The translations under genes and the position numbers were made by a program. From NCBI GenBank assembly GCA_018056375.1, contig JAGPFQ010000002.1, positions 11,344 through 75,343 of the forward strand: 64,000 nucleotides of DNA. Reading direction: 5' to 3'. Positions 30,776 to 55,575 of this stretch are shown piece by piece. This DNA is from Candidatus Dojkabacteria bacterium. Lineage in GTDB: Bacteria > Patescibacteriota > Dojkabacteria > SC72. The notes beneath the pieces are model-generated. The model saw only the letters and a program-made list of their open reading frames with translations. It was not told the DNA's origin and made no database searches. Within the stretch, counting starts at the first letter, position 1. Every line of letters begins with the position of its first letter.

Positions 30776-31124
30776 TTCTGGCTAGTAATGTTGTTTTTAA
30801 TCTTGCATAAAAGCTTGCACATTTGAAATTGGTATGATATACTCCTTAGCACGAGTTTGGGAGATGTGTTAAAAATGTATATGGAGAAACAGGAATCCTC
30901 TTAGAGAACTTCTCTAACGAATCCCCTGAGAAGAAATTGTTTAGTGTAATGCTATGAAGTGTTGTTAGCACCTTAAAAGTTGAAGAGTGACAGGAAGTCT
31001 AAATAAAATTTGACTTTCTGTGTGATGAGTCACACAATTCATTTAGTCAGATGTTTTTTGATCAATCCGGCAGTGATACTGGTCGGTCACACTTAGGTGT
31101 GTTAAGTTAAGTATCTTTTCAATG

Positions 31125-32668
<1,544 letters not shown>

Positions 32669-32752
32669 TCTAAGGAGTAACCAGATCTTCCTGTCACTTT
32701 TTAGCTTTTAAGGCTAAGTTCTTTAATTAAATAGATACTATGTACCGAAGAG

Positions 32753-32914: not shown

Positions 32915-33662
32915 TATATTATCAGAAAAAGAAGAGAGATCTTTAATTTCTGGGTCAGGATATCTGTATATATTTTTACTGTTGAGGTAGGTCGTAATGT
33001 TTTACAGTGAAGATTACAGAATCCGTAGTTGCACATTTAAAACTGAATAGAAAGTAATTTCAATTAAGCAAATTAAGGGCGTATGGTGAATGCCTTGGCA
33101 CAAAAGATCGATGAAGGACGTAGTAGATTGCGATAAGCTTCGGGTAGCTGTCAAACGAGCTTTGATCCGAAGATCTCCGAATGGAGTAATCCAACTGGGA
33201 TTATGCCCAGTTATCATGCAGTGAATTCATAGCTGTATAGAAGAGCACGCAGGGAAGTGAAACCTCTCAGTACCTGCAGGAAAAGAGAACAAGAGTTTAT
33301 TCCCCTAGTAGTGGCGAGCGAAAAGGGAAGAGCCTAAACCTATACTGTGTAAGAGGAATACGAAGCCTGATTCGCGTTGCGATGATGGCGGACTTGAACT
33401 CGCAGGTTGCTACTCGTGCAGTATGGGTGTTGTAAGAGTTAATGGAAGTGGTAGCAAACACTTCGAGGAGTTACAAAATTCCATTTTAGTAGAATATATC
33501 TGGAAAGATATGCCATAGAGAGTGATAGCCTCGTATACGAAAATGTGGAATCTCCTTTTTAATTTCTTAAGTACCACGGAACACGTGAGATTTTGTGGGA
33601 ATCAGCCGATACCACTCGGCAAGGCTAAATATCTTTTGTGACCGATAGTGAATTAGTATAGA

Positions 33663-33706
<44 letters not shown>

Positions 33707-35211
33707 ACTGAAACCATATGCTTACAAACAGTCGTAGCTGGTATATCCAGTGGCGGCGTGCCTATTGAAGAATGACCCAGTGAGTTCGTTGTGTGTGGCA
33801 AGGTTAACCATGTTTATTGGGGAGCCGAAGCGAAAGCGAGTCCGAATAGGGCACCTTGAGTCACATGCACGAGACCCGAAACCAGGTGATCCAGCCATGA
33901 GCAGAGTGAAGTTCTGAGAAATCAGGATGGAGGCTCGAACTCGTTAATGTTACAAAATTATGAGATGACTTGTGGCTAGCGGTAACATGCCAAACGAACC
34001 TGGTAATAGCTGGTTCTCCCCGAAATAGCTTTAGGGCTAGCGTTGTGATTTAAGATGTGGGGGTAGAGCACTGATTGAATTTGGGACCCGAAAGGGTACC
34101 CACTTCAGTCAAACTCCGAATACCATATTGAACATCACAGCAGTTAGAGCTAGGGATCTAAGTTCCTATGCTCGAGAGGGAAACAGCCCAGATCGTCAGA
34201 TAAGGACCCTAAATTTTACCTTAGTGGGAAAGGAAGTGAAATTTCTCAGACAGTTAGGAGGTTGGCTTAGAGGCAGCCATCCTTTAAAAAATGCGTAAAA
34301 GCTTACTAATCAAGAGATTTTGCACTTAAAATTAACGGGGCTGAAGGTAAATTCCGAAGCTGCGAATTTATACATACTTCGGTATGTATGGGTGGTAGGG
34401 GAGCGTTCTATACATGACCGACTTAGCAGTCGGTAATTAGCTGCGAAGGTGGCCCGTAAGGAGTTGCTGGAGCGTATAGAAGTGAGAATGCTGGGATGAG
34501 TAACGTAAAGCAGGTGAAAACCCTGCTCGCTGAATGTCTAAGGTTTCCATGGCTATGTCAGTCAACCATGGGTTAGTCGGTCCTAAGGAGAGGCTGAAAA
34601 GCGTATCCGATGGATAACAGGTTAATATTCCTGTACTACTGATATTTGAAATGGAGTATGAGGATTGAAGATGCAGGCCCCTTATTGGTTTGGGGTGTAA
34701 GCAACAAGAGAGCTCTTCTAGGAAAATCCGGAAGAGTGTTTCCACCTCGGTGGATGAACGCGAGTTGTGATACAAAGGTGACCTTCGGGAAGCCGATTTG
34801 TAGTACTTAATTCTCCAGGAAAAACTTCTATCTTTAACTACTTCGGTAGTTAATAAAGTATTAGTAACCGTACTGCAATCCGACACCGGTAGACTGGTGT
34901 AAAAGCACCAAGGCGTACGAGTTATGCGTTGTTAAGGAATTCGGCAAATTGACCCCGTAAGTTCGCAAGAAGGGGGACTCTACATCATAAGTTTTTTATT
35001 TGTGGTGATTAGAGTGGCACAGAATAGGGAAGAACGACTAGTTACCAAAACTACAGGCGCTTGCAAACTCGTAAGAGGATGTATAAGTGCTGACACCTGC
35101 CCAATGCCAGAAGGTTAAGATAATTTGTTAGCTCTCTGCTGGGTGCACTTCGGTGCCCTAGTGGTTGCGAAGCAAAGAGTCGAAGCCCTGGTCAATGGCG
35201 GCTGTAACTAT

Positions 35212-35982
35212 TAGACCTGGTGGGGTAGCAATACCCTGCCAGGAATTGTAGTTGTAAAATTTGGCTATATGCTGGAACGTCTGAGTATTTCTTGCTACTC
35301 ATTAGATGATATTCAAATTGTAAGAAATTTGTAATCTCTAGTAGTTAAAATGTAAGAATGCAGATAATCAGCAGGAAAGATTTGTAATGTCAGATCCTAT
35401 TTTTACAGAACAATTGAAATGGTTTCTCTCTGGATTTATCGATGGAGAGGGAAGCTTTTGTCTTAATATTAAGAGTAGAAAGGACTCTAGGTATGGTTTG
35501 AGAATAGAGCCAGCTTTTTATGTTTATCAACATGAAAAAAGTGTCCATATACTTGAATTGTTAAGAAAGATGTTTGGATGTGGAAGTATCCATAGAAAAA
35601 CATCACCGTATAGCGTTTTTACGTATCAGATTTCTGGTATAAAACCTTGCTATACCAAAGTTATTCCTTTCTTTGAGAAGTATCCGTTAATCGTAAAGTC
35701 TCAGACTTTTGAAATTTTCAAAAGAGCTGTTGATTTTATGTATAAAAAGCGACATCTAACTAAGGAAGGTTTTCTTTACTTAGTGGATTTAGCATATGAG
35801 ATAAACCAACAAGGGAAAGGTAAAAAATGGGATAAAGAGACAATAATTACAAAAATCCTCAGAGACTATACGCCAAACTCCTGATAGGGAGATGAGATAG
35901 TCCGACCTGTATGGCGACATACAGATGTATATAGAAATATATACACGAATCTAACAAACGTTGTTAGAGGGTAACACAAGTG
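35212..35982 (+). mobile_element. Group I intron at the 23S position equivalent to E. coli L1917. It carries a LAGLIDADG homing endonuclease ORF
   Basis: The upstream exon ends in U (gtaactaT). The intron ends in G (caagtG). A P7-like element gagatagtccgacc at about 35893 resembles the group I S element AAGATATAGTCC. The ORF lies upstream of P7. Confidence 0.6.
35387..35884 (+). CDS. LAGLIDADG-family homing endonuclease (single-motif type) encoded within the 23S group I intron
   Basis: LSGFIDGEGSF is a LAGLIDADG motif. The ORF is embedded in an rRNA intron. Confidence 0.85.
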   Translation: MSDPIFTEQLKWFLSGFIDGEGSFCLNIKSRKDSRYGLRIEPAFYVYQHEKSVHILELLRKMFGCGSIHRKTSPYSVFTYQISGIKPCYTKVIPFFEKYPLIVKSQTFEIFKRAVDFMYKKRHLTKEGFLYLVDLAYEINQQGKGKKWDKETIITKILRDYTPNS

Positions 35983-35988
35983 AACGGT

Positions 35989-36304
35989 GGTAGATATATA
36001 TCTACTGAGATATTTGCTAATCTCGGTTTGCTATCTAAAGATATAGGGCCGTTTTAAAATCTAGCTATATGCTGGAACATCCTAAACGATACAAGTACCA
36101 AAGAGTAACAATCTTGTATTTATGGACAATCAGCAGGAAAGATCCAAGAAATTGGAAATCCTCAGAGGCTACATGCTAGACACAATATAATATTGTGAAG
36201 ATATAGTCCGACCTCTACAGTGATGTAGAGAGATACACGAAGGTGTATCCGCCTAAAAATAGGTCTTCTAGTTTAATGAACACTAGATGGAAGTAACAGA
36301 AATG
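35989..36304 (+). mobile_element. Second, ORF-less group I intron at the position equivalent to L1923. A 6-nt exon (aacggt, 35983-35988) separates it from the first intron
   Basis: The S-element gaagatatagtccgacc lies at about 36203. The intron ends in G (gaaatG). It shares the elements gctatatgctggaac and aatcagcaggaaagat with intron 1. Confidence 0.5.
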
Positions 36305-36873
36305 CCTAAGGTAGCGTAATACCTTGTCACTTAATTAGTGACTTGCATGAAAGGTGTAACGATTTTTCCTCTGTCTCGACAACGTGCTCGGTGAAATTGA
36401 AATGGCTGTGAAGATGCGGCCTACCTATACCAGGACAAAAAGACCCCGTGGAGCTTTACTTCAGCTTTGCATTGAGATAAGGTCTCGGATGTATAGAATA
36501 TGTGGGAGACTATGAAGCAGTTTCGTCAGGAATTGCGGAGTCGACAGTGTAATACCACTCTTTTGATATTTTATTTCTAACAGTATCCATTATCTGGATT
36601 CTAGACAGTGCATGGTGGGAAGTTTGACTGGGGCGGTTGCTTGCTAAAGAGTACCGCAAGCGCACTAAGGTCTCCTCAACCCGGATGGAAATCGGGTGAA
36701 GAGTGCATAAGCATAAGGAGGCTTTACTGTGAGAGGGACACCTCGATCAGTTACGAAAGTAGGTTTAAGTGACCCTTTGGTTGCGCGTGGAAGCGCCATT
36801 GTTTAACGGAGATAAGCTACCCCGGGGATAACAGGCTAGTCTTGCCCGATAGTTCATATTGACGGCAAGGTTC

Positions 36874-36905
<32 letters not shown>

Positions 36906-36938
36906 ATTGGATAAGATCCCAAGGGTTGGACTGTTCGT

Positions 36939-36969
<31 letters not shown>

Positions 36970-37404
36970 CCGGCGTAAGCCAGGTCGGTCTCTATCCGGT
37001 ATAGGCGTTGTATATTTGAGAGAATCGTCCCCTAGTACGAAAGGATCGGGGAGTGGTAACCTCTGGTCTACCAGCTGTTCTACCAAGAGCATGGCTGGGT
37101 AGCTAAGTTATTATCGGATAAGCACTGAAAGCATATAAGTGCGAAGCCAATCTCAAGATTAAATATACTTGTGTAGCTTGACTACATGGGAGGTCTGTGG
37201 AAGACTACCACATTGATAGGCTCTAAGTGTGAGTATAGTGATATACTTAGCTGAGGAGTACTAATTGACCAAAAGCTTCTTTGATTATCCATTACTTTCT
37301 GTTCGGTTTTGAGTGTACAATGTACACCAATCGCTCTTTAGAATTAAGTCCTGAACTTTTCGTAAGAAGAGGTCAGGCAAGAGGTATTTAAATATAGATT
37401 CCTT

Positions 37405-37523
37405 TTGCCTGGCGATTGTAGTGGAGTGGAACTACCTGACTCCATCCCGAACTCAGAAGTAAAACACTCTAACGCCGAAAATACTTAAACCGCGAGGTTT
37501 TGGAAAGATAGGTTATTGCCAGG
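37405..37523 (+). rRNA. rrf: 5S ribosomal RNA
   Basis: ttgcctggcg...cctgactccatcccgaactcagaag...ttgccaggac matches the 5S consensus architecture. Confidence 0.8.
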
Positions 37524-37537
37524 ACTTTTTGAATATG

Positions 37538-37566: not shown

Positions 37567-39537
37567 TTAAAGAAAAAACCATTCAGGTTTGACAGCTGTA
37601 GCTAATGTGATGAGTGGTAATTCACCTCCTTTCTTTGTTGGGACTGTAATTAGTTCATTTGCGACTAACAGGTCTCCTAAAACTCTGGACTCTCTTCCAA
37701 GTAGGGCATTTTCTTGTGTAGCAATATTACGATACCAACCACGTCCAAGAGTGAAGAAAATTTTGTCAGGAAATCCTCTAGAGATTGCCTTACACAATAT
37801 CTCTGTTTCTGCTTTTGTTTTGTTTGGTCTATATCCCAATCTCTTTATCTGTGAAATGAGCTGTGAATAATTTTGTCTTATCTCTCTTAATGCATTGTAT
37901 GATACATAATTTTCTCTACACCATCTGTAGTTAAAATTATTCTTCTCGGCTGCTTCATACACACTTAATAGGTTTAATAAGTCTGATGAGTTTGATTGTC
38001 CTAAGCTTTTGTGAGCAGCATCTGCTATTTCTACTTCATCCTTTGGTTTGTACAAGAGAGGTCTGCTTGTTCTGATTGCCGCAATAATAGCCATTTCTGT
38101 ACTACACCCCATTTCACAACCAGCTAGAATCATTGTCCCTTCTCTTGGGTCACAAGAAAGTTCTGCTAATTGTTGTCCAAACTCCGAAAGTCTTCTTTCA
38201 TCATTATGATCTAGAGCACCTAGTAAGCGTAATTGATTCTTAGCAGCTTTCCAATTCCCTTTCTCTGGGGAATCGATGAGTCGTATAGGATCTTCTTCTC
38301 TTGAATAACCCATTGCCTTAATCTGTAAGACAACCTCTCTTAAGGATGTTCTGAGAATCTCAGGTTTAGTTGAATTGGGACGGTTATCATAATCATCTTT
38401 TGTAATTAGGTAATAACATTCTCCCGGCTGTGTTCTTCCTGCACGCCCTTTTCTTTGACGTAAAGAATCTTTAGCTGTATGTGTTGTCGCTAATTTCGTT
38501 GTGTCAGCATTGGGGTCATACTCGATAGATTTTGCTAAACCAGAGTCAATAACATATTTAACACCATCTATTGTCAGTCCTCTTTCTGCCACATTTGTTG
38601 ATACAATAATCTTTCTGCTGTTGGGTGATTTCTGAAAAACCTTTTGTCGTTCTTCAGACTGTAACTGGCTGTGTAAGGGGAGTATTGTTGCCCCTAAAAT
38701 CCCCTGTTTTTGCATCTCCTCAATAGTTTGCCTAATTTCATTCTTACCTGGCATGAAAATCAGTATGTCTCCCTCAGGTGTATTTTGATGAATAGAAGAA
38801 GCTACTTTTGCAGCTTCCCTTGGCATTTGGCTTTGTGGTATGCGCACATCGGAGAAATGTTCTTGCACAGGATAGGGACGTCCTTTTGCTTCTATAATTG
38901 GTGCACCACCAAAGTGTTCTGAAAACTTTTGTGCATTAAGAGTTGCAGACATTAAAAGGAATTTGACTTTAGAATCTTGCTCTTGGGCTTTTTCCACAAG
39001 TGCCAATCCGATATCTGAAAGTAGATATCTTTCATCAAATTCGTCAAATATGACAACAGATGTGTCTTGAAGTTTAGGGTCAGATCTAATAATGTTTTTA
39101 AATACACCACTTGTCATAAAGACAATTTCCGAGTCTAGGGAAGATTTCTTTTCTGGACCTGTGATATATCCGACAGTTGTTCCTACCTCTGTTCCCATTT
39201 CTTGGGCTACTCTTTTTGCTGTTTCGACCGTTACTGCCACACGGTTCTCTACTACATAAATCTTCTTATTGTCTTGGGTAAAACCTGCTTGCCATAAGGC
39301 TTGTGGTACTTGTGTGGTTTTACCACTTCCTGTTTCAGAAACCAAAATTAGTTTATTATCATTCTTTAGAGTTTCCACAATTTCTGGCATTCTCTCCCAT
39401 ATTGGAAGAGAATGGTTTCCAATAGGTTCTGTGTCTTGTGGTAAAATTTCTATATCATTTTGTGACACATCTTCTGACACACTTGGCATATCAGGGGATG
39501 ATGTTGTAATTTCGTTTGTTGGTATGTCTTCTGGCAT
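37567..39537 (-). CDS. DEAH-box ATP-dependent RNA helicase, HrpA/HrpB-like (short form)
   Basis: Motif I is LVSETGSGKTTQVPQ. Motif II is IFDEFDER (DEFD variant of DEAH). Motif III is SATL. Motif VI is TNVAERGLTIDGVKYVIDSG. The C-terminal region is HA2-like. Confidence 0.8.
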   Translation of the reverse strand: MPEDIPTNEITTSSPDMPSVSEDVSQNDIEILPQDTEPIGNHSLPIWERMPEIVETLKNDNKLILVSETGSGKTTQVPQALWQAGFTQDNKKIYVVENRVAVTVETAKRVAQEMGTEVGTTVGYITGPEKKSSLDSEIVFMTSGVFKNIIRSDPKLQDTSVVIFDEFDERYLLSDIGLALVEKAQEQDSKVKFLLMSATLNAQKFSEHFGGAPIIEAKGRPYPVQEHFSDVRIPQSQMPREAAKVASSIHQNTPEGDILIFMPGKNEIRQTIEEMQKQGILGATILPLHSQLQSEERQKVFQKSPNSRKIIVSTNVAERGLTIDGVKYVIDSGLAKSIEYDPNADTTKLATTHTAKDSLRQRKGRAGRTQPGECYYLITKDDYDNRPNSTKPEILRTSLREVVLQIKAMGYSREEDPIRLIDSPEKGNWKAAKNQLRLLGALDHNDERRLSEFGQQLAELSCDPREGTMILAGCEMGCSTEMAIIAAIRTSRPLLYKPKDEVEIADAAHKSLGQSNSSDLLNLLSVYEAAEKNNFNYRWCRENYVSYNALREIRQNYSQLISQIKRLGYRPNKTKAETEILCKAISRGFPDKIFFTLGRGWYRNIATQENALLGRESRVLGDLLVANELITVPTKKGGELPLITLATAVKPEWFFL

Positions 39538-40467: not shown

Positions 40468-41781
40468 ATGGATGATGATTCTATAACATATCCAAATCTT
40501 ACTGATAATTCCACAATAGATGATTCTGTTCAATCATCACAAGAGGAAATGTCTACAAAGGTTGAGAAAAAGGAAATAGGGAATAGTCTCAAAGTTATTA
40601 TTGCAGGTCCACCTCATTCGGGTAAATCAATAGCAGAGAACTATTTAAGAGGTCTTTTACCAGTAGAAGACACCATGAGGATAGCCGCACAACCTGATGG
40701 TGAAGGAGATTGGACACAAAAGCTTTATGAACAAAATCCTGAATTAGCAAGAGAGCTTCGAGCGAAAGGTTCTTTTACAAGAGAGAATGTTGATAAATGG
40801 AAATCTCAAATTCGAAATACAGACAGTAGATTTGCATTAATAGATGTTGGAGGGGTTGTAAGCCCTGAAAATGAAGAAATATGTAATGAAGCGAATGCAA
40901 TGATAATAGTTTCCTCTGATGAAACTAAAAATGCTGAATGGGTAGATTTAGCAAATAGGACAGGTTTAAATATTCTTGCTGTATTACACTCAACCTTGGA
41001 ACCAAGACAAGAGTGGTTTGTTAAAACACCAAATAAAGAGTGGGAAAATGAGGGGCTAGTTGTAGGTTTGGATAGGGGGAAGTTTAAAGAATCACAAACA
41101 TTACGAAGTCTTGCATCATATATGTTGGAAAAGGTTCCTGAGAGAGTGGAACAAGAGAGTATGGAATATGAGAGGATAGGTGTTGAAGATATTGCGGAAA
41201 TGATAGGGAAGAAGGAAGAAGAAATTATTCTACCAGGTAGAGAACCTATTAAAGGTTTGAACTGGAAACCAGAAGAATTAAAGGAAGTATATATCAGATT
41301 ACAAGGTTTGTCAGAAAAAGGAGGAAGTTTCTTGGTAGATGGGAGAGCACCACAGTGGTTAGTAGTAAATATTGTACATGCTATGCATCCCAACAGGGTT
41401 GCTTTAGCGGATAGTAAGGTTGAAGGTGGGGCTGTTGGAATTTCAGGCTTGAATACCCCAGATGGCGAAGGTAGTGGTCCTCTACCGTTTCAGAAAACAG
41501 AAGGTTTTCATGGTGGTACATTGGTTCAGTATGCCAAAGGTGAGTTTATAATTGTTGATAACCAAAGGATGAATGAAGTGATTCCTCCTGCTGTAGCTGA
41601 AGGGAAACCTGTCTTCTTGAGTGGTAAAACTGCAAACTGGGCTGTGGCCGAGATAGCAATGTCCTATGCTCATATTGTTCCAGCAGTTTATCTATATCAA
41701 CCAGGAGTAGGTTTTGTTTGTGCAATTACACATAGTACAGAGCATGAATTAGGATCTGTTATAAAAGAGAATCCTGTGTAA
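40468..41781 (+). CDS. P-loop NTPase of unknown family (Walker A GPPHSGKS, Walker B-like FALIDVGG) fused to an unrecognised C-terminal domain of about 250 aa. The compositionally G-richer gene has a possible Clp1/polynucleotide-kinase-like P-loop
   Basis: KVIIAGPPHSGKSIAENYL resembles the GPxxxGKS-type P-loops of Clp1/Grc3 and nucleotide kinases. The remainder (…VDGRAPQWLVVNIVHAMHPNR…FQKTEGFHGGTLVQYAKGEF…) matches nothing I can name. Confidence 0.45.
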   Translation: MDDDSITYPNLTDNSTIDDSVQSSQEEMSTKVEKKEIGNSLKVIIAGPPHSGKSIAENYLRGLLPVEDTMRIAAQPDGEGDWTQKLYEQNPELARELRAKGSFTRENVDKWKSQIRNTDSRFALIDVGGVVSPENEEICNEANAMIIVSSDETKNAEWVDLANRTGLNILAVLHSTLEPRQEWFVKTPNKEWENEGLVVGLDRGKFKESQTLRSLASYMLEKVPERVEQESMEYERIGVEDIAEMIGKKEEEIILPGREPIKGLNWKPEELKEVYIRLQGLSEKGGSFLVDGRAPQWLVVNIVHAMHPNRVALADSKVEGGAVGISGLNTPDGEGSGPLPFQKTEGFHGGTLVQYAKGEFIIVDNQRMNEVIPPAVAEGKPVFLSGKTANWAVAEIAMSYAHIVPAVYLYQPGVGFVCAITHSTEHELGSVIKENPV

Positions 41782-45094: not shown

Positions 45095-48000
45095 TTATTT
45101 CTTTTCTACCTGTTTTCTCTTGTATATGTTATATCCTAAGAGTATTGTTAATAGGACAATTAGGGCAATCAACCAGTAAACGTATGTTGGTATTATTACT
45201 TTTTCTACTTTGACATTTATCTCCATCTCTTCTGCTCCATCGCTGATTAGATTAATTTTCTTTTCAGCCCTATACCCATTATATGAAATAACCATTGTAT
45301 GTAAACCTGTTTCTAGATTTTCAAAATATACTTCTCCATTTTCATCAGTAATTCCTGTTCTAACATCCGAGTGTATTTCAACAGTAACACCTACAAGAGG
45401 TTCTCCAGACTCATTGTATACCTTTATTTTTAGACTCTTAGATTGAGTAGGAGGAGTAGGTTCTTTAGTTATATCAACAGTTTCTTCTTCAGCTTTAGTG
45501 TCTTCTTCCTGTTCAGTTTCGATAATGGGATTGATGTATTTAGTAAAAGGATTCTTTGGTTTTACAATAGGTTTTGGGTCTAGAGGAGTAGGGATAATTG
45601 GTTTTGGAGGTTCTTCTTCCTCTTCCTCAGGTTGTTCTGGTTCTTCTTCCTCTTCTACAATATATGTCACAGAGTTATCAGTAGAGGTAGATGCTACGTT
45701 TGTATTTCCAGCTAAATCAGTTAATACATCAGCAGGAATAGTTGCCGTTACTGTTTCACCATTTGTTAGGTTCTCAATCTCAACTTCATACTCTGTTTCA
45801 CTAATTTTTGTTATACTTTTGACTTGAGCAGTAGTACTTCCTGAGATTAGTATGTCTTCATTAGTAAAAGTATCTTCTTTGATTGGTTTTGAGAAGATAA
45901 CCGTGTATTTAATGGAGTTAATATCTGTTGGGTCTGTTTGAGTAGAGGATTGATTAATAGTTACAGAGGGTGGAGTATTATCATATGTAATAGAGTTGTC
46001 AATACTGGTTGATGCAATATTTTTGTTTCCAGCAAGGTCTTCCACAGTATCAACAGGTAGGATGAGTGAAACTGTTTCTCCTGATACCATACCATTTACA
46101 TATGCTGTGTATGTTGTGTTATTGACATTTGTTAATAGTAATACTTTAGCTGTACTACTACCCAATATTTCTAAATCATCTCTTGTAAATGTATCTTCAT
46201 TTATTGGTTCAGAGAAGATTATTGTAAATTTAATTATATCTTCATTTGTAGGATCAGCTTGATCATCAGCTTGGTTTACTGTAACTGTTGGAGAAGTAGC
46301 ATCATATGTTACTGAATTGTCAGTAGAAGTTGAGGCAGTATTGGTGTTTCCAGCAGAATCTTCAACTCTGTTAGCCGGTAGGAAGAGTGATACAGTTTCC
46401 CCAGATACCATACCCGTTACAACTGCAGTATATGTAGTGCTATTTACTGTTTGTAATTGTGATATTGTCGCTGTACTACTACCTGATATGAGTAGGTCTT
46501 CTTTTACAAAAGTATCTCCATTTATTGGTTTGGAGAAGACAACTGTATATTTAATGGAGTTTATATTGGTAGGGTCTACTTGGTCATCAGCTTGATTTAC
46601 TGTAACAGTTGGTTTCTCTTTATCGAATGTAACAGTACTGGATTCTATCTCAGCAGTATTCCAGTTACCAAGAACATCTTGGTATGTATGAGCAGGGGAG
46701 AATACTGTTATACTTGCCTTTTGGTTCACTATGCCTGACACAGAGAGAGCATATTTCTTATTATTTATACTTGTTACTTCTGTAACCTTTGCTGTAGTAA
46801 CAACACCGTCTTCCTTAATCTTAAAACTATTTGCATCTAAGGTATCATCTTTCAGAGGTTCAGAGAAAGTTACATGGAAGATAATAGGTTGTTGATTAGT
46901 TGGATTTGGTTGTCCAGTAGCTGGTACAATTGAAGTAATGTATGGAGGTGTAATATCAATTATTAGTTGACCCGTGATTTCACTACTGTTTTGAGCAGTA
47001 TCCGTAGCAGTTATTGTTAAATTGTATGTTTTTGTTGTTAGGTTTGTAATGTCTCCAGCAGATACAGTCCAAGTACCATTTTGATTGTTTGTTGCATTGA
47101 TTATCTGTCCAGTTTCTACAATCACTACTTGTACAGTAGCATTTTTATCATTAACAGTACCTGTAAGTTCAGGGGAGGGGTTATTTGTACTTAAATCTTC
47201 ATATCCTACTACTGGAGCGATGGTGTCTTTCAATAGCTCTTTGGTGTCTTCTCCTTTGTTTCCAACATCGTCCGTCTGTGATGCATAGACAACGACAGTA
47301 CCATCGGGTTGTGCTGATAGGTCTAGTTCTGTGCTCCAAGTGTCATCACTTTGACATTCTGCTACATATGGTTGTTCTGCTATAACTGTAATGATATTGT
47401 TGTCTCCAAAAGTACATGTACCCCCTAGGGTGTAGTGGGTTCTGTTTGCTCTGTTAATTGGTGCTGTGCTGGTTATGGAAATTGCTGGTGGGATTCTGTC
47501 TATGATATATCCTTCTTTGGTTTCAGTAATACTGTTTCCTGCTTGGTCCTTGGCTGTTATAGCAAGGTTCCCTGATTCTATGATTGTTATTGTACAATTA
47601 ATAATATTTTTATCTCCAGTATCAGCAGTACATTCCAAATTCTCAGCCATTCCTGTTGAACTTGCAGCTATCTCAATATCTGCAGGATATATTTCAACAG
47701 CATCTGTTACAGTAATTGTAGTATCTGTAATATTATCCTTTTTCTTCTTGGTAGGAGCATTGATAGTAATAACAGGGTCAACAGTATCAATCGTATACAT
47801 GTGTGAGTTGTATCCAGTTGCTCCATTATTAGTATCCTCTGCTTGTATTATAATTGTTCCACTTTTATTAATATTTCTAATATTACAAGTTACGTATGTA
47901 GTATATGGAGCATTATGTTCTCCATCTGCATCTGCACAATTTTCAAGAGTAACACCCTCGGATGCTGTTCCAGAGATTGCAATGTTATCAATTTCGTGTC

Positions 48001-51000
48001 CTGCGATAGGGGCAGTAATTGTTACAGTTGAATTGTTAATGGGTTGGTTACTAAGGATAGTAGGGGCATTGAATACGACTTCTGGAGGGAAAATGGTTTG
48101 CTTTTCAGTAGTATTGCCCACTAAGTCGTAGGCGATAACTGTAATTGTGTGTTGATCTTCTCCTGCGTAAAGTTCAAGAGTTCTTTGTATAACACCAGGT
48201 TTTGTATACTCTATTTCATCAACTTTGTTTAATCCATCACTTCCAACATATTTAATCTCATACTTTAACATTCCTACAGCATCAGTAGCTTCAAATTCAA
48301 TAATTGGTTTATCTATACCATGTGTTAAAGTATCAATACTTGATGTAATAAAGGTTGGGGGAACTTGGTCAACAACATATCCATCTTTGAAGGCAGTAGA
48401 GCTTAACCCAGCATTATCAGTAGCCTTCAAAACTAATCTACCAGAAGTTTTTATACGAATAGTACAATTCATTTCTATATGATTCTCTGGATCGGGTGGA
48501 TCAGCTTCATATGGGAAGGGTGGAGTACATACAATATTATCCGCAGTAGCTATACTGGACTCATCTACTTCTACAGAAGCGATAGAGAAACGATCGCTTA
48601 CTTTAAATGTAGTATCAGTGATAGGGGCATTGGACATAGTAGTTCCTTGATTAATAGTAATTTCTGGAGGTAAATCATCAACATCAAGTACAGTGATAAC
48701 GAAGATTTCTTCGGTATATAAATTAGTTGAGTCGGTGGCTCTTACTCTAATTGTATATTTATTTTTATCATCAGGGTCAGCTGTTCCTGTTGGATTTTCA
48801 TAGTCTGGAGGTTCTAGGAAAGCTAAAGCACCAGTAGTAGGATTAAGAGCAAACTTAGAGTTATCTCCACTTCCTTCACCAGATACAAGAGAGTAGATTA
48901 CTGCACCCTCAGCTTCAGATGTAATAGTGCCTACTTCTGTTTTGTTTTCTTCGATTTCATCAGGAGATAGGCTGAGGTTCTGAGGAGGACATTTCTTACC
49001 AGCATCATTTATAGTCCATTTGCTCGGATCTCCCATTAAAGCTGTTCTTGCATCTTCTGCATAGCAGTAGTTTACTCCTACTGCATCAAAGGTTCGACTT
49101 GGTTTTACAGTTTGTACACTCCATGCATTTAGCAAACTATCATAATTATCTATTTGCATGTTAGAAGCATTTAAGAATTGATTAAAGTATTCAACCTTAC
49201 TAATATTCCAACTAGATATATCTTGATTAAATTGGGCAGCACGATCAAACATACGCGTCATATTTGTAACATTTGCTGTATTCCAACTATCACCAAACGG
49301 TTGATTAAACTGATAAGCATAATTAAACATAGCTGCCATACTTTTAACCTGAGTAGTATTCCAGTTTAAGGGCTTACTCTCATCACCAGGTTCTGCACCA
49401 TTATTAAAAACATTGGCATTTTGAAACATGAATGCCATATTTTCAACCTTTGCTGTATTCCAATCACCAATATATTGATTAAAACTTCTAGCTTGTCTAA
49501 ACATATCTGACATGTTCCTGACATTTGCTGTAGTCCATTTAGGGCCAAACGGTTGATTAAAGTCTCTTGCCACAAACATGGCATACATAGTATCAACCTT
49601 TGATGTATCCCAATTTAATGGATTACTACTACCACCTGCAACATCACCGTTATTAAAAACAGTAGCCCCATTAAACATATGCATCATACTGGTAACTTTT
49701 TTAGTATCCCAGTTATTAAGATTTTGGTTAAAGGAACTAGCACTCATGAACATGCCGAACGTACTAGTTATATTGCTAGTATTCCAAGAACCAATATTTT
49801 GGTTAAATGCTTTAGCGTTTAGAAACATGTATGTTACATACTGGAGACTTTTAGTGTCCCAATTCATGGTGTTGCTACTTTCACCTGGTGCTTCACCGTT
49901 ATTGAAAACGGTTGCACCTTGAAACATGTTAGACATATTAGTAACCACACCAGTATCCCAACCACCAATATATTGATTAAATGCACTAGCATCTCGAAAC
50001 ATAAGAGACATGCTTTCAACCTTTGTTGTAACCCAATTCATAGTATTTTGACTTTCACCTGGTGCATCACCATTATTAAAGGCTGTGGCTTGTCTAAACA
50101 TGTTAGACATATTAGTAACCGCACCAGTATTCCAACTACCGATGTTTTGATTGAAAACTGAGGCCTGATTAAACATTGAGCCCATATTAATAACCTCACT
50201 GGTATTCCACCCACCAATATCCTGATTGAATACAGTAGCTCCGGCAAACATACCGTACATATCTCTTACAAGTCCAGTCTGCCAACCACTAATATCTTGA
50301 TTAAAGGAATAAGCTTTGTTAAACATTTGCTTGAAGTTAAAGGCTTTACTCGTATTCCATTCTAAAGGCTTAGTGCTTTCACCTGGTGCCTCTCCATTAT
50401 TAAAATTGGTAGCTTCGAAGAACATAAGGGACATATTACCAACTTCGCCAGTTTTCCATTTACCGATGTATTGATTAAAATTTGTAGCACCACCAAACAT
50501 TGAGTTCATTGCAGTCACTGCACTTGTATCCCAATTACCTATGGGGGCATTAAAGTTACTGGCTCCACTAAATGTAGCAGCCATATTTTTAACACCACTA
50601 GTATTCCAACTATCCATAGAGTCATTACCAGTAAAGTTTGTAGCTCCTTGAAAAGCAGAAGACATATCTGTAACTTGTGATAAATCAGGGATATCAGTAG
50701 CAGTTAGTTGCATATTAACCATGTCCTTAAAGGCAGACATGAAGCTTGACCATGGGATAGTACCCCATTGTTTAATCTCTAATAGTTTAGCTTTTTCATC
50801 GGTAGCTAAATCAGGGGAATAGAAACGGAGTGGGGCAGTAGATCTAACGCAAACATCGTATGTACCTGGTGTCGGATAATTATGTGTAGCTAAGCTAGTG
50901 TAAAACAGTTCATAATCATCATCACAATTCCAAGATACTTCATAAGTATCGGTAGCTACTTTCAAAAATCTTAAAGTGACTTTATTTGGTTCAGTTGCTC

Positions 51001-51169
51001 CAGTTACATCAGTTTGCCATGTGGTTACAAATAGGTCAGGGGAGTAAGCATGGGTTTTAAAGTTTCTGTTTTTAACTAAAAAGATTGTAAAACCAATAAC
51101 TAATAGAAGGGTAGTTAGGATGAAGAATATTCTCTTTACATGTGGATATTGGACAGAATTTTTAATCAT
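45095..51169 (-). CDS. Giant cell-surface protein 1 (2024 aa). An N-terminal signal anchor is followed by about 19 DUF285-type repeats, a cadherin-like domain, Ig-like (Big) domains including 3 tandem copies, a Pro/Glu-rich linker, a CarboxypepD_reg-like beta-sandwich and a C-terminal TM anchor with a KR tail
   Basis: The ~27-aa unit F..A..FNQ(D/N)IG.WNTS.V..M..MF recurs throughout the N-terminal half. The cadherin-like signature is VITVLDVDDLPP. The C-terminus reads KPIVKPKNPF...IKVYNESGEPLVGVTVEIHSDVRTGITDENGEVYF...WLIALIVLLTILLGYNIYKRKQVEKK. Confidence 0.85.
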   Translation of the reverse strand: MIKNSVQYPHVKRIFFILTTLLLVIGFTIFLVKNRNFKTHAYSPDLFVTTWQTDVTGATEPNKVTLRFLKVATDTYEVSWNCDDDYELFYTSLATHNYPTPGTYDVCVRSTAPLRFYSPDLATDEKAKLLEIKQWGTIPWSSFMSAFKDMVNMQLTATDIPDLSQVTDMSSAFQGATNFTGNDSMDSWNTSGVKNMAATFSGASNFNAPIGNWDTSAVTAMNSMFGGATNFNQYIGKWKTGEVGNMSLMFFEATNFNNGEAPGESTKPLEWNTSKAFNFKQMFNKAYSFNQDISGWQTGLVRDMYGMFAGATVFNQDIGGWNTSEVINMGSMFNQASVFNQNIGSWNTGAVTNMSNMFRQATAFNNGDAPGESQNTMNWVTTKVESMSLMFRDASAFNQYIGGWDTGVVTNMSNMFQGATVFNNGEAPGESSNTMNWDTKSLQYVTYMFLNAKAFNQNIGSWNTSNITSTFGMFMSASSFNQNLNNWDTKKVTSMMHMFNGATVFNNGDVAGGSSNPLNWDTSKVDTMYAMFVARDFNQPFGPKWTTANVRNMSDMFRQARSFNQYIGDWNTAKVENMAFMFQNANVFNNGAEPGDESKPLNWNTTQVKSMAAMFNYAYQFNQPFGDSWNTANVTNMTRMFDRAAQFNQDISSWNISKVEYFNQFLNASNMQIDNYDSLLNAWSVQTVKPSRTFDAVGVNYCYAEDARTALMGDPSKWTINDAGKKCPPQNLSLSPDEIEENKTEVGTITSEAEGAVIYSLVSGEGSGDNSKFALNPTTGALAFLEPPDYENPTGTADPDDKNKYTIRVRATDSTNLYTEEIFVITVLDVDDLPPEITINQGTTMSNAPITDTTFKVSDRFSIASVEVDESSIATADNIVCTPPFPYEADPPDPENHIEMNCTIRIKTSGRLVLKATDNAGLSSTAFKDGYVVDQVPPTFITSSIDTLTHGIDKPIIEFEATDAVGMLKYEIKYVGSDGLNKVDEIEYTKPGVIQRTLELYAGEDQHTITVIAYDLVGNTTEKQTIFPPEVVFNAPTILSNQPINNSTVTITAPIAGHEIDNIAISGTASEGVTLENCADADGEHNAPYTTYVTCNIRNINKSGTIIIQAEDTNNGATGYNSHMYTIDTVDPVITINAPTKKKKDNITDTTITVTDAVEIYPADIEIAASSTGMAENLECTADTGDKNIINCTITIIESGNLAITAKDQAGNSITETKEGYIIDRIPPAISITSTAPINRANRTHYTLGGTCTFGDNNIITVIAEQPYVAECQSDDTWSTELDLSAQPDGTVVVYASQTDDVGNKGEDTKELLKDTIAPVVGYEDLSTNNPSPELTGTVNDKNATVQVVIVETGQIINATNNQNGTWTVSAGDITNLTTKTYNLTITATDTAQNSSEITGQLIIDITPPYITSIVPATGQPNPTNQQPIIFHVTFSEPLKDDTLDANSFKIKEDGVVTTAKVTEVTSINNKKYALSVSGIVNQKASITVFSPAHTYQDVLGNWNTAEIESSTVTFDKEKPTVTVNQADDQVDPTNINSIKYTVVFSKPINGDTFVKEDLLISGSSTATISQLQTVNSTTYTAVVTGMVSGETVSLFLPANRVEDSAGNTNTASTSTDNSVTYDATSPTVTVNQADDQADPTNEDIIKFTIIFSEPINEDTFTRDDLEILGSSTAKVLLLTNVNNTTYTAYVNGMVSGETVSLILPVDTVEDLAGNKNIASTSIDNSITYDNTPPSVTINQSSTQTDPTDINSIKYTVIFSKPIKEDTFTNEDILISGSTTAQVKSITKISETEYEVEIENLTNGETVTATIPADVLTDLAGNTNVASTSTDNSVTYIVEEEEEPEQPEEEEEEPPKPIIPTPLDPKPIVKPKNPFTKYINPIIETEQEEDTKAEEETVDITKEPTPPTQSKSLKIKVYNESGEPLVGVTVEIHSDVRTGITDENGEVYFENLETGLHTMVISYNGYRAEKKINLISDGAEEMEINVKVEKVIIPTYVYWLIALIVLLTILLGYNIYKRKQVEKK
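45650..46610. repeat. Three tandem repeats of about 320 bp inside giant gene 1 (approximate ends). Each encodes a ~106-aa Ig-like unit of the form PTVTVNQADDQ.DPTN...FSxPIxxDTF...GMVSGETVSL.LP...VED.AGN.N.ASTS.DNS.TYD
   Basis: The repeated protein units were read from the translation. Shadow ORFs 45996..46262 and 46317..46595 on the opposite strand mirror the ~321-bp periodicity. Confidence 0.6.
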
Positions 51170-51202
51170 AACCTCAATTTTGTAGCATACTCACTTTATC
51201 TA

Positions 51203-54200
51203 TCAGTTTTTATCTTCTTTGTTCTTCTTGTATATGATGTATCCAAAGAGTATTACTAATAGCACAATCAATACTATCCACCAGTAGTTTGTTCTTCTTA
51301 CTTCTTTTAACTCTACATTAACCTCAATCTCTTCTTCTACATTATTAGTTAAATCAATCTCTCTTTCATCTGTATGTCCTTTGTATGAAATGATCATTGT
51401 ATGTTGACCAATATCTACATTCTTAAAGTATGCTTCTCCATTCTTGTCTGTAATCTCTCTTCTAACCTTAGAATGTATTTCAACAGTAGCACCTTTGATA
51501 GGTTTCTTGTCTTTGTCATATACCTTTACTCTTAGATTCTTGTATAGAGAGGGGTAAGTAATCTTCTCTGTTGTCTTAGAGGTTTCCTCTTCAATTTTTT
51601 CTTCTGTTGTAGTCTCTTCTTCCTCCTTAATTATTGGATTAAGGAATTTATTATATGGATTTCTTGGTTTTACAATGGGTTTTGAAATAATTGGTTTGGG
51701 TGGCTCTGGTATTTCTGGTTTTTTCTCTTCTACGAAATACTTAACACTATTATCAGTAGATGTACTGGCCTTGTTACGGTTACTAGCTAGGTCTTCAACC
51801 ATATTAGCTGGTAAGGTAAGTGTTACTGTCTCTCCAGATACCATACCGGTTACAAGTGCTGTATATGTTGTATCATTAACCTTTGTTATTTTAGATACAA
51901 TAGCTGTACTACTTCCTGATATATCTAAAGTTGTTTTACAGAAAGTTTCTTCTTTAATTGGTTCTGAAAATACAACTGTAAATCTGATCTCATCTATATC
52001 AGTAGGGTCAGATTGTCCATCAGCCTGATTTACAGTAACTGTTGGAGCAGTAATATCATATGTAACTGAATTATCTGTACTGGTAGATGCAATATTCTCG
52101 TTTCCTGCTGGGTCTGTACATACCCCTGCGGGTATATCTACTGTGATGGTGTCTCCATCTGTTAAGTTACTTACTTCAAATTCATATTCGGTATCACTGC
52201 CATCAATCTTTGTAAGATTACCTTTTTGGTATGTTGTACTTCCAGTTACAACGATATCATCTGTTGTAAAGGTTGTATCAACAATTGGTTCTGAGAAGGC
52301 GATGATAAATTTGACTGGATTTAGATTGGTTGGATCTGTTTGTCCAATTGCTGAGTTAATGGTAACTGTTGGTGCTATGGTATCTTTCTGTAATGTTGCA
52401 TTTGCTGTTCCTATGTTTCCTACAGCATCTATCTGTTTAGCTTCTACTGCAATATCTCCATCAGGATAGGCAGAGAGGTCTGTGGTTAGTTCCCACACTT
52501 CTCCTTTCATACACATAGTCAAATGTGGTTGTGTTCCTATTGTAACAATTACATCTCCATCACTGGTTGAACATTCTCCTGATAGTGTGTAGCTCGATTG
52601 GTTATTTAAATTAACCTTTACAGGGTCATCATCTATTGTTACTGGTGGAGGTGTCTTATCTACCAGAAAACCATTTTCTTCCTTTTCAAAAGAGTTTCCT
52701 GCCTTATCAGTAGCTTCGATAACTAACTTACCAGAACCTGTGATTGTTAGAGAACAATGTACTATTGATTTGTCATTTTCATCTGTCTCGCAAGTGAAAT
52801 CCTTGTATCCTGCTGTTGTAGAATCTGTCTTTACTTTGACACCACTTGCAAAAAGGTCAACATTATCAGTAACTGTAATTTCGACATTAGTAATATCGTT
52901 GTTACTTTGCTTGATAGGTGGAGAGATGATTATGTCTGGAGCTTCTGTATCATGGAAATATTTTTGCACATTTGTTCCTGTTTGTGTCCATGATTCACCA
53001 TCTGTTTCTATAGCAGTTACTGTAAGCATACCGGTATTTTGAATACCTGTTATTCCACAGGTGAAAGTACCGGCATATGGTAAACTATCACATCCAGTAA
53101 GTGAGGCTCCAACCGCAGCAGGACCTGAAAGATCTATACTTGTAATTAGGTAAGCTGGGTCGGATGTAGTAATTGTTACAGTTGTATCATTGATGGGCGA
53201 TCCGTTACTAATTATATGAGGAGCATTTATTTCCACTACCGGTGGAAATGCAATTCTTCTAGATGTGGAGTTACTAGTTTCTAATGTCTCGCCAGCATTG
53301 TCATATGCCGTAATCTCTATTGTATGAGTTGGTTGACTAGAATCTAAGCTGAGGTCATATGATATGATGTCTGAACTGTATAGATCTTCTGGAATATCAA
53401 TGGTTGTTAAATTCCCCGGTACACCGTAAGTAATTTGATATTTCTGTATTCCCGTAGGGTCTTCTGCTTTAAACTTAACAGTTGGATTATGTATACTACC
53501 TGATGGAGGTATAACAACATTAGCTACTGTAAAGTTTGGACCTTTTGTATCTATGACATATCCGGGTTCTGCAGCTGTAGTAGTGTAACCAGCCTCATCA
53601 GTAGCATAGAGTACTAGAGTACCAGAAGTGGTAATAGTAACAGAACATCTAATAGTTAAGTGATTAGTAGGGTCAGGTTCGTCACATCTGTATGGAAAAT
53701 CAGGAGATGATGTATTTCTTATTCCCTGACATTGAATACTGCCAGATTCAATAGAGGCAACACTTGATGCATGTAATCCTACAGATTCAATTGAAAACCT
53801 ATCACTTACTTCAAATACAGTATCCGTTATATTCCCTTTCTTTGTTTTGGTTCCTGGGATAATTCTAATAACTGGTCCTACATCATCAATATCTTTAACT
53901 TTAATTATGAAAACTTCTTCTGAGTATAGTCCGATATCATCTGTTGCTCTTACTCTAATAGTGTAGAGATTTTTGTCAAGAGGATCATATGAGTCTTGTG
54001 GATCTTCAAAGTCTGGTTCTTCTAGAAATGATAGATGTCCACTATTCAAATCAAGTACAAACTTTGAGTTATCCATATCTCCTTCACCAGGGACAAGAGT
54101 GTAGGTGATGGGGGAATTTTCATCATCAATTGCTGAGATATTTCCTACATCCTTGGTGTGTTCATTAACTTCATCTTCGCCGTCGCCCAACCGTATTGTA

Positions 54201-55540: not shown

Positions 55541-55575
55541 TTTTAGAAATTAATATATGTTAATTTTAATTATCT

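Follow-up and report, generated by a model that had tools for sequence, protein, structure and literature searches.

How does an intact homing endonuclease gene come to lie in an intron to whose lineage it does not appear to belong, six bases away from a second intron that lacks one? The question is raised by the 23S ribosomal RNA (rRNA) gene of an uncultured Candidatus Dojkabacteria (WS6) bacterium of the candidate phyla radiation (CPR; Patescibacteria), in a stretch of 64,000 nucleotides (nt) of contig JAGPFQ010000002.1 (assembly GCA_018056375.1, positions 11,344 to 75,343 of the forward strand), which was analysed at its full length and is referred to here as the window. All coordinates are window positions unless they follow the handle of another locus, and features lie on the + strand unless marked otherwise. 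Helix 69 of this gene is split at Escherichia coli positions 1917 and 1923 by an insert of 771 nt (intron X, site L1917), which carries an open reading frame (ORF) for a LAGLIDADG endonuclease, and by an ORF-less insert of 316 nt (intron Y, site L1923). The account favoured here, to which a probability of about 0.78 is attached, is that X and Y are two independent group I introns between which the contents of the P6 region, a cassette with the endonuclease gene in some introns and a short hairpin in others, have been exchanged.

The boundaries of the two inserts were placed by direct reading and by alignment to E. coli rrlH. The 5' exon, ...GGCGGCTGTAACTAT, stops at 35211, which corresponds to U1917, and its last six bases, AACUAU (35206-35211; E. 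coli 1912-1917), form the 5' strand of the X P1 helix with U1917 as the splice-site U. Intron X (35212-35982) starts TAGACC and ends ...CAAGTG; the micro-exon AACGGT (35983-35988; E. coli 1918-1923), on the 3' side of helix 69, constitutes the whole 5' strand of the Y P1 helix; intron Y (35989-36304) starts GGTAGA and ends ...GAAATG; and the 3' exon, CCTAAGGTAGCG, begins at 36305, equivalent to C1924, with CCUAAGGUAGCG (36305-36316). The intron-less site is GGCGGCTGTAACTATAACGGTCCTAAGGTAGCGTAATACC, and the ligated exons would read ...GUAACUAU-AACGGU-CCUAAGG.... An earlier note on this DNA had described two side-by-side group I introns and a 6-nt exon in helix 69, a description now borne out by covariance models, guide sequences, P3 covariation and other genomes. 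Its particulars are equally sound: the insert lengths are exactly those given, the sites are L1917 and L1923 (U1917 at 35211, E. coli 1923 at 35988), each insert follows an exon U and finishes in G (G35982, G36304), and removal of both yields GTAACTATAACGGTCCTAAGGTAGCG, the same as E. coli 1910-1935. The first insert does contain the LAGLIDADG ORF (LSGFIDGEGSF) that it named, the second has no ORF of 50 amino acids (aa) or more, and the true 23S rRNA would be, as supposed, much shorter than the 4.2-kb gene span, the introns taking up 1087 nt of 4223 nt.

The same layout of X, AACGGT and Y is found in 10 independent Logan assemblies, with an identity of 99.7-100%, and it recurs in two GTDB metagenome-assembled genomes (MAGs) of Candidatus Dojkabacteria with 99% identity (L011, L012) and in a contig from the Joint Genome Institute (JGI; L096); another JGI contig (L100) has X with its ORF and stops before Y. 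The source genome is itself a MAG, and ORF-bearing and ORF-less alleles coexist in nature, so that an assembly chimera or a collapsed repeat, joining introns from different operons or strains, might be suspected. Against this, the junction is the same in the 10 Logan assemblies, both GTDB MAGs and five JGI contigs (L096-L099, L101), the supporting contigs include some of 23-156 kb, and unrelated MAGs show the same architecture, which makes an artefact of this kind extremely improbable.

On every feature that can be tested in sequence, X and Y are group I introns. The covariance search that the earlier note had proposed, with Rfam model RF00028 (curated threshold 50 bits), finds group I cores: Y matches at 36002-36230 (78.8 bits, E=4e-20), and a natural ORF-less allele of X matches at 9115-9360 of JGI contig L099 (69.1 bits, E=2.7e-17), the Rfam alignment showing P3-P9 in both. 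Folding, which had been proposed as well, was of partial use, in that the minimum-free-energy fold of Y contains peripheral hairpins (z = -4.2) and fails to recover the pseudoknotted core; for that reason it was dropped as evidence for the core. A twintron was considered and rejected, since the two introns are separate, with six exon bases between them and a complete core in each. A non-intron intervening sequence or fragmentation site was likewise set aside, both inserts having group I cores and guides.

In X the guide GUAGUU (35248-35253) pairs at all six positions with AACUAU, the splice-site U forming a U-G pair, and the same guide stands 10 or 15 nt upstream of the motif GCYAUAUGC in all seven L1917 introns examined. 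In Y the guide GCCGUU (36048-36053) pairs 6/6 with AACGGU. Both guides lie 10 nt upstream of that motif, which belongs to P3/J3-4. In a set of about 55 related introns, guide and exon vary together: compensatory exon:guide variants at L1923 include AAUCGU:GCGAUU, AACUGU:GCAGUU, AACCGU:GCGGUU and GACGGU:GCCGUC, and two of three L1931 introns have a GCCUUA guide, which pairs with UAAGGU. The P3 helix behaves similarly. Its 5' strand in X, UUUGGC (35260-35265), pairs 6/6 with GCCAAA (35872-35877) across the ORF, the Y counterpart (UCUAGC/GCUAGA) differs from it by compensatory changes, and in this fixed register all six pairs form in 56 of 58 introns, five of the six positions showing 2-4 types of pair. 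A terminal G is not universal among the relatives, as L1923 introns L023, L024, L029, L031 and L053 and the L1917 intron of L046 (831-1568) end in A; these introns, and not X or Y, recall the Coxiella intron reported to lack omega G.

If X and Y are both genuine introns, their histories nevertheless differ, as comparison with related 23S genes, a further check suggested in the earlier note, makes plain. Sister Dojkabacteria (L013-L019 and L092-L095, the latter recovered through protein look-ups) have a single intron of 745-794 nt at L1923 and none at L1917. These sister introns begin GGTAGA and end GTAACAG(G)AATG, like Y, and have a LAGLIDADG ORF in P6. The Y core is 79-85% identical to those of ORF-bearing L1923 introns of other Dojkabacteria (against L013, 85% in the 5' core and 79% in the 3' core). 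In X it is the ORF that resembles the L013 intron, with about 86% aa identity and 75-97% in nucleotide windows, whereas sliding identity in the flanks is 42-70% on the 5' side and 62-78% on the 3' side. The switches in identity fall at AATCAGCAGGAAAG and AATCCTCAGAGACTA, the approximate breakpoints of an L1923-lineage cassette (35367-35868) comprising the P6 stem and the endonuclease gene. Outside the cassette X has the marks of the L1917 lineage, namely its guide, a 5' UAGACC as in L077 and the J8/7 sequence GAUGA, which is found in nine of nine L1917 introns and in four of 46 L1923 introns, Y and all Dojkabacteria L1923 introns having GAAGA. Reliance was placed on such discrete signatures because overall core identity gave mixed best matches; it was abandoned as a means of placing X, the cores of introns at all sites being too similar, and a crude P5-motif signature was not discriminating either. 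Taken with the protein tree described below, the identity profile and the L1917 marks imply that the sister intron corresponds to the ribozyme of Y plus the ORF of X.

It might instead be supposed that an ORF-bearing L1923 intron was copied whole to a position six nt upstream, for example by reverse splicing into AACUAU, after which the L1923 copy lost its ORF and the L1917 copy diverged. Such a duplication would account for the membership of X and Y in one structural family with shared core motifs, for the orthology of the X ORF with the L1923 ORF and for the common form, AAC-NN-U, of the two 5' exons, and the earlier note had read the strings shared by X and Y in this sense. The strings are indeed present, but they correspond to core motifs, namely P3/P4, P4'/P6 and J8/7-P7 (represented by GCTATATGCTGGAAC, AATCAGCAGGAAAGAT and the AGTCCGACC element), and the P3/P4, P4'/P6, P6'/P7 and J8/7 motifs occur in nearly every L1911, L1917, L1923 and L1931 intron examined, from many phyla. 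The longest exact match between X and Y, the 16 nt of AATCAGCAGGAAAGAT, is about the median of a control set of 618 intron pairs in which the partners differed in both genome and site (median 15, 95th percentile 23, maximum 32), so that nothing in the shared strings points to a recent duplication. A copied intron should, moreover, have diverged evenly, and the contrast between the X core on the one hand and the ORF and the Y core on the other, set out above, is far from even. The GAUGA and UAGACC signatures of X point to the L1917 lineage, and in P2, P5 and P9 X shows no relationship to Y or to the sister introns. Whole-intron duplication is for these reasons judged unlikely.

The descent of the gene is clearest in the protein. 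A neighbour-joining tree of 102 endonucleases resolves into site-specific clades, for L1911 and L1917 together, L1923, L1951 and L2604. The window protein is sister to that of L013 (100%), within a Dojkabacteria L1923 clade (93-97%) that lies among 62 L1923 sequences; it falls outside the separate clade (100%) of the L1917 endonucleases of L046, L071, L077 and L082, to which it is 28-31% identical. By this tree and the identity profile, the endonuclease gene in X belongs by descent to the L1923 lineage. Similarity of the cassette in X to that of the sister L1923 introns has by itself no direction, and the reverse transfer, in which the gene was native to L1917 introns and reached the Dojkabacteria L1923 introns from X, would explain it equally. 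However, the window protein sits several nodes deep among the L1923 endonucleases of many phyla, those of L1917 introns form a different and well-supported clade, and X occurs in one Dojkabacteria sub-lineage only, the ORF-bearing L1923 intron being present in at least seven others. A transfer in that direction is thus very unlikely. The endonuclease of an L1931 intron in an Omnitrophota MAG (JAUYOH010000030; L027, 3188-3890) is also nested in the L1923 clade of this tree, and may represent another switch to a neighbouring site.

The ORF (35387-35884) starts in P6, runs through P7 and the 3' strand of P3 into P8, and encodes a single-motif LAGLIDADG protein of 165 aa (PF00961, E=3e-20; 73.5 bits against a cutoff of 23.1). 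Its motif, LSGFIDGEG, has the conserved acidic residue, with G16, G20 and E21 invariant in an alignment of 40 sequences, and the ratio of non-synonymous to synonymous substitution is 0.10 against L013 (synonymous divergence 0.82) and 0.08 against L096. On these values the gene is intact and under purifying selection. The best matches in the PDB are LAGLIDADG enzymes, with both halves of I-OnuI-family monomers matched at E of about 1e-37. I-CeuI was considered as a close relative and rejected, the match being weak (PDB 2ex5, E=9e-14, 55 bits). The intron that encodes I-CeuI, in the large subunit rRNA gene of the Chlamydomonas chloroplast, lies at site 1923; the window enzyme is thus like I-CeuI in being a single-motif LAGLIDADG protein and in the site, which is shared with Y and with the clade of the endonuclease, and unlike it in sequence, which is distant, the I-OnuI-family halves matching far better. 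Just upstream of the endonuclease ATG stands the core motif CAGCAGGAAAG (35371-35389), whose AGGA ends 11 nt before the start, and the motif could double as a ribosome-binding site.

What happened to the cassette can be followed among close relatives. A scan of metagenomes with the exon and X junction recovered six JGI contigs, whose identity to the window is 94-97%. Two of them have X with the ORF (L096, L100), and the other four have an ORF-less X beside Y (L097, L098, L099, L101), with a stretch of 12 nt in place of window 35382-35852. The ORF-bearing L096 has the short 5' hairpin variant of the ORF-less alleles, so even very close relatives differ in whether they have the ORF. In all four ORF-less alleles the P6 region of X is the same as that of Y over 40 nt, the P4'-P6-P6' block with the short P6 hairpin AATCAGCAGGAAAGATCCAAGAAATTGGAAATCCTCAGAG (36128-36167 in Y), variable hairpin included, a length that exceeds the maximum in the control pairs described above (32; median 15). 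Nor is this confined to Dojkabacteria. In an Acidimicrobiia MAG (BPGJ01000015; L064, 2124-3460) the neighbouring L1911 and L1931 introns share an exact block of 70 nt, against the same control maximum of 32, and are nearly identical over about 125 nt in P3-P6, which indicates concerted evolution of adjacent introns in another phylum too and suggests that exchange is general wherever related introns adjoin.

Together these observations suggest the following course of events. Y would be a vertically inherited Dojkabacteria L1923 intron, of the kind that in sister species has the ORF in the P6 loop, and X an intron of the L1917 lineage gained in the sub-lineage of the window. Recombination or, most likely, gene conversion would then have exchanged the P6 cassette between X and Y through the near-identical ribozyme-core motifs that flank P6 (AATCAGCAGGAAAG and AATCCTCAGAGRCTA). 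The outcome would be an L1923-lineage endonuclease gene in X and a short hairpin in Y, and in related strains the hairpin in both. The short P6 stem of Y, AUCCAA/UUGGAA, is unlike those of sister L1923 introns (e.g., CUUGC/GCAAG) and like that of the L1917 intron of L083, which would mean that the hairpin may originally have been that of X and that the cassettes may simply have swapped places.

Several points weigh against this account of two independent introns and an exchanged cassette. In the window itself X gives a partial RF00028 match (35679-35924) of 30.6 bits (E=1.3e-5), below the threshold because the 475-nt ORF splits the core, and the score above the threshold belongs to an allele from another sample. 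The best matches of the X core are 68-79% identical and mixed, with L1923 introns of other phyla among them, so that the assignment of X to L1917 depends on a guide that is functionally constrained and on a few signatures. More than one order and number of conversion events would fit, and the swap, which does so, may share the field with other routes. The endonuclease is only distantly similar to I-CeuI, its target and activity being predictions, and splicing, its order and the ligation of the exons are likewise deduced from the sequence.

Movement of endonuclease genes between introns has precedents. In eukaryotic nuclear rDNA such genes are inferred to have entered introns at neighbouring sites (PMC1299323), and in the yeast omega intron endonuclease genes are gained and lost by gene conversion (PMC4059233). 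The switching between neighbouring sites described by Haugen et al. resembles the present case: the gene does not share the history of its ribozyme, it relocates to an adjacent site, and ORFs are made or removed by conversion. The known cases, however, concern eukaryotic nuclear or mitochondrial genes and were deduced between distant taxa or at the same site, whereas here donor and recipient lie 6 nt apart in one bacterial gene and intermediate alleles occur in metagenomes. The components are all known already, namely group I introns at the 23S hot spots L1917 and L1923, the placing of LAGLIDADG genes in P6, tiny exons between tandem introns, and the frequency of introns in the rRNA genes of CPR bacteria; what is new is the presence of donor and recipient introns in one gene, with the intermediate alleles visible in metagenomes. 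The alleles form a natural series, from a single L1923 intron with the ORF, through X with the ORF and Y without, to both introns without it and with identical P6 regions, that should be useful for studying the transfer of endonuclease genes from one intron to its neighbour, and their loss. The series also counsels caution, as the target site of an endonuclease should not be deduced from the intron that now hosts its gene.

A further proposal, put forward tentatively and at somewhat less than even odds, is that X and Y form one composite mobile unit whose P6 cassette is shuffled by ectopic conversion at the core motifs. By its clade, the endonuclease should recognise the intron-less 1917-1930 region. 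An L1923-lineage endonuclease encoded in an L1917 intron would then cut the intron-less helix 69 site, and repair would copy X and Y together because they are only 6 bp apart. If the proposal is correct, the locus offers a bacterial snapshot, at the level of populations, of endonuclease genes hopping between adjacent rDNA sites, a step that until now has only been deduced from incongruent trees in eukaryotes.

The arrangement also raises the question of how an exon of six bases can be spliced at all. Because each intron has a separate guide for its own 5' exon, neither needs the other in order to define its 5' splice site. The P1 helix of X would take the upstream exon only, and the substrate strand of the Y P1 would be exactly the micro-exon, which is why six bases are enough. 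Splicing would probably be sequential, with the micro-exon used by two reactions in turn, since the same six bases adjoin the 3' splice site of X and form the P1 of Y. In two related loci (L046 831-850 and L071 4038-4053) ACCGUU or ACCGU stands directly 5' of GUAGUU in the upstream L1917 intron, making a continuous guide for AACUAU|AACGGU in which the micro-exon is claimed by the upstream P10 as well as by the downstream P1. In X itself the hexamer preceding the guide is GGAAUU, whose poor complementarity to AACGGU makes it a weak candidate for P10. Exon skipping is on record in Coxiella, where the exon is 34 nt long, and in engineered tandem introns (PMC10136302); it can be anticipated here as a side reaction, one that would remove half of helix 69. 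The strains in which both introns are ORF-less imply that the protein is not needed as a maturase.

Directly downstream of the rRNA operon is a gene for a HrpA/HrpB-like DEAH-box helicase (37567-39537, minus strand). A 2011 paper by Hicks, to go by its title, reportedly proposes that an RNA helicase aids group I splicing in Coxiella; the position of the helicase gene beside the operon may be a coincidence.

Helix 69 is a conserved functional element of the ribosome, and retention of more than 1 kb of RNA in its loop and stem, or a break there, would disrupt it. This bears on the possibility that the inserts are kept as expansion segments, or are excised without ligation to leave a fragmented 23S rRNA. 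A survey of CPR rRNA genes describes them as rich in insertions of several kinds (PMC11270868), and a group I intron in the 23S rRNA of Simkania is reported, in the title of the paper, to be unspliced, which counts against splicing here too. However, both cores pass the Rfam threshold (X as its ORF-less allele), both inserts end in G, the guides are maintained and covary with the exons, P3 covaries as well, and the existence of strains with two ORF-less introns implies splicing without the protein. Retention or fragmentation is accordingly regarded as quite unlikely.

How often does this pair of introns occur? The earlier note had thought the arrangement especially unusual, a view that did not survive comparison. 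With each species represented by a single genome, a scan for relatives of the endonuclease yielded 80 loci. Among these, L1917 and L1923 introns separated by an AACGGT exon are found in four further bacterial MAGs: in two, both Gammaproteobacteria (L054, L056), the upstream intron is ORF-less and the downstream intron has an ORF, and in the other two, an uncultured bacterium (L071) and a Bipolaricaulota MAG (L046), there is an ORF in each. Other combinations are common, including L1917 with L1931 across a 14-nt exon (L082, L083), L1917 with L1931 and L1951 (L077) and L1911 with L1931 (L064). The L1917 and L1923 pair has arisen repeatedly, and a 6-nt exon suffices as the precise P1 substrate of a downstream intron. 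The arrangement is not unique and is less unusual than first supposed.

Literature searches turned up no paper on a bacterial L1917 and L1923 pair, or on a micro-exon between rRNA group I introns, the only counterpart being a chloroplast table. For the rrl gene of the Tydemania expeditiones chloroplast it lists LAGLIDADG introns at 1917, 1923 and 1931 (PMC4487195); the tandem group I introns at 1917 and 1923 imply the same 6-nt exon as in the window, but the host is an organelle, each of the three introns has its own LAGLIDADG gene and the table reports no exchange of cassettes. Bacterial L1917 introns with a LAGLIDADG ORF that runs from P6 into the core were described in 2007 (PMC1995217). 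Those of Synechococcus sp. C9 and Thermotoga subterranea are 743-774 nt long, against 771 nt for X, and encode proteins of 168-181 aa, against 165 aa; they are like X in the course of the ORF from P6 into the ribozyme core and in having no classical P2 (PMC1995217). The window endonuclease is nevertheless unlike the L1917 clade, its identity of 28-31% referring to the L1917 endonucleases found in this analysis and the comparison with C9 and Thermotoga being one of descriptions. Coxiella burnetii, as cited in later papers (Raghavan 2007 and Hicks 2011, in PMC10136302 and PMC11270868), has introns Cbu.L1917 and Cbu.L1951, which resemble the window pair as two group I introns in that part of the 23S gene with only a very short exon between them, and differ from it in the length of that exon (34 nt against six), in the second site (L1951) and in belonging to subgroups IB2 and IA3. 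The CPR survey counts 1917 among the frequent 23S sites of LAGLIDADG_1 insertions and many genes with several insertions (PMC11270868); its list of sites (1917, 1931, 1952, 2593, 2604, 2657) does not include 1923, and it does not appear to describe the tandem pair.

The host gene is part of an rRNA operon with the order 16S (31118-32669), tRNA-Ile, tRNA-Ala, 23S and 5S (37408-37524). The 23S gene (33062-37284; RF02541, 2262 bits; aligned to E. coli rrlH) spans 4223 nt, against a model of 2925 positions. The introns account for 1087 nt of the excess and smaller expansions for the remaining 230 nt or so; one of these, of about 130 nt, falls at E. coli 268-304, and two others measure about 30 nt each. 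The oversized gene is thereby explained, and the exact boundaries given above can be used to annotate the 23S rRNA of this lineage. The extra sequence of about 130 nt, in domain I (33334-33499), could be an expansion segment or a small intervening sequence; its hairpin fold has z = -1.7, and at this position Rfam finds no family other than large subunit rRNA. One of the insertions of about 30 nt (35118-35180; E. coli 1854-1886) forms the hairpin agctctctgctgggtgcacttcggtgccctagtggttgcgaag, and the other lies in 34637-35062 (within E. coli 1405-1798).

Beyond the operon, an ORF of 437 aa (40468-41781, plus strand) matches the model of the CRISPR-associated ring nuclease Crn3/Csx3 at its C-terminus with 43.5 bits, below the cutoff of 55.4, and on the minus strand at 45095-58491 three very large ORFs follow one another (2024, 1445 and 971 aa).

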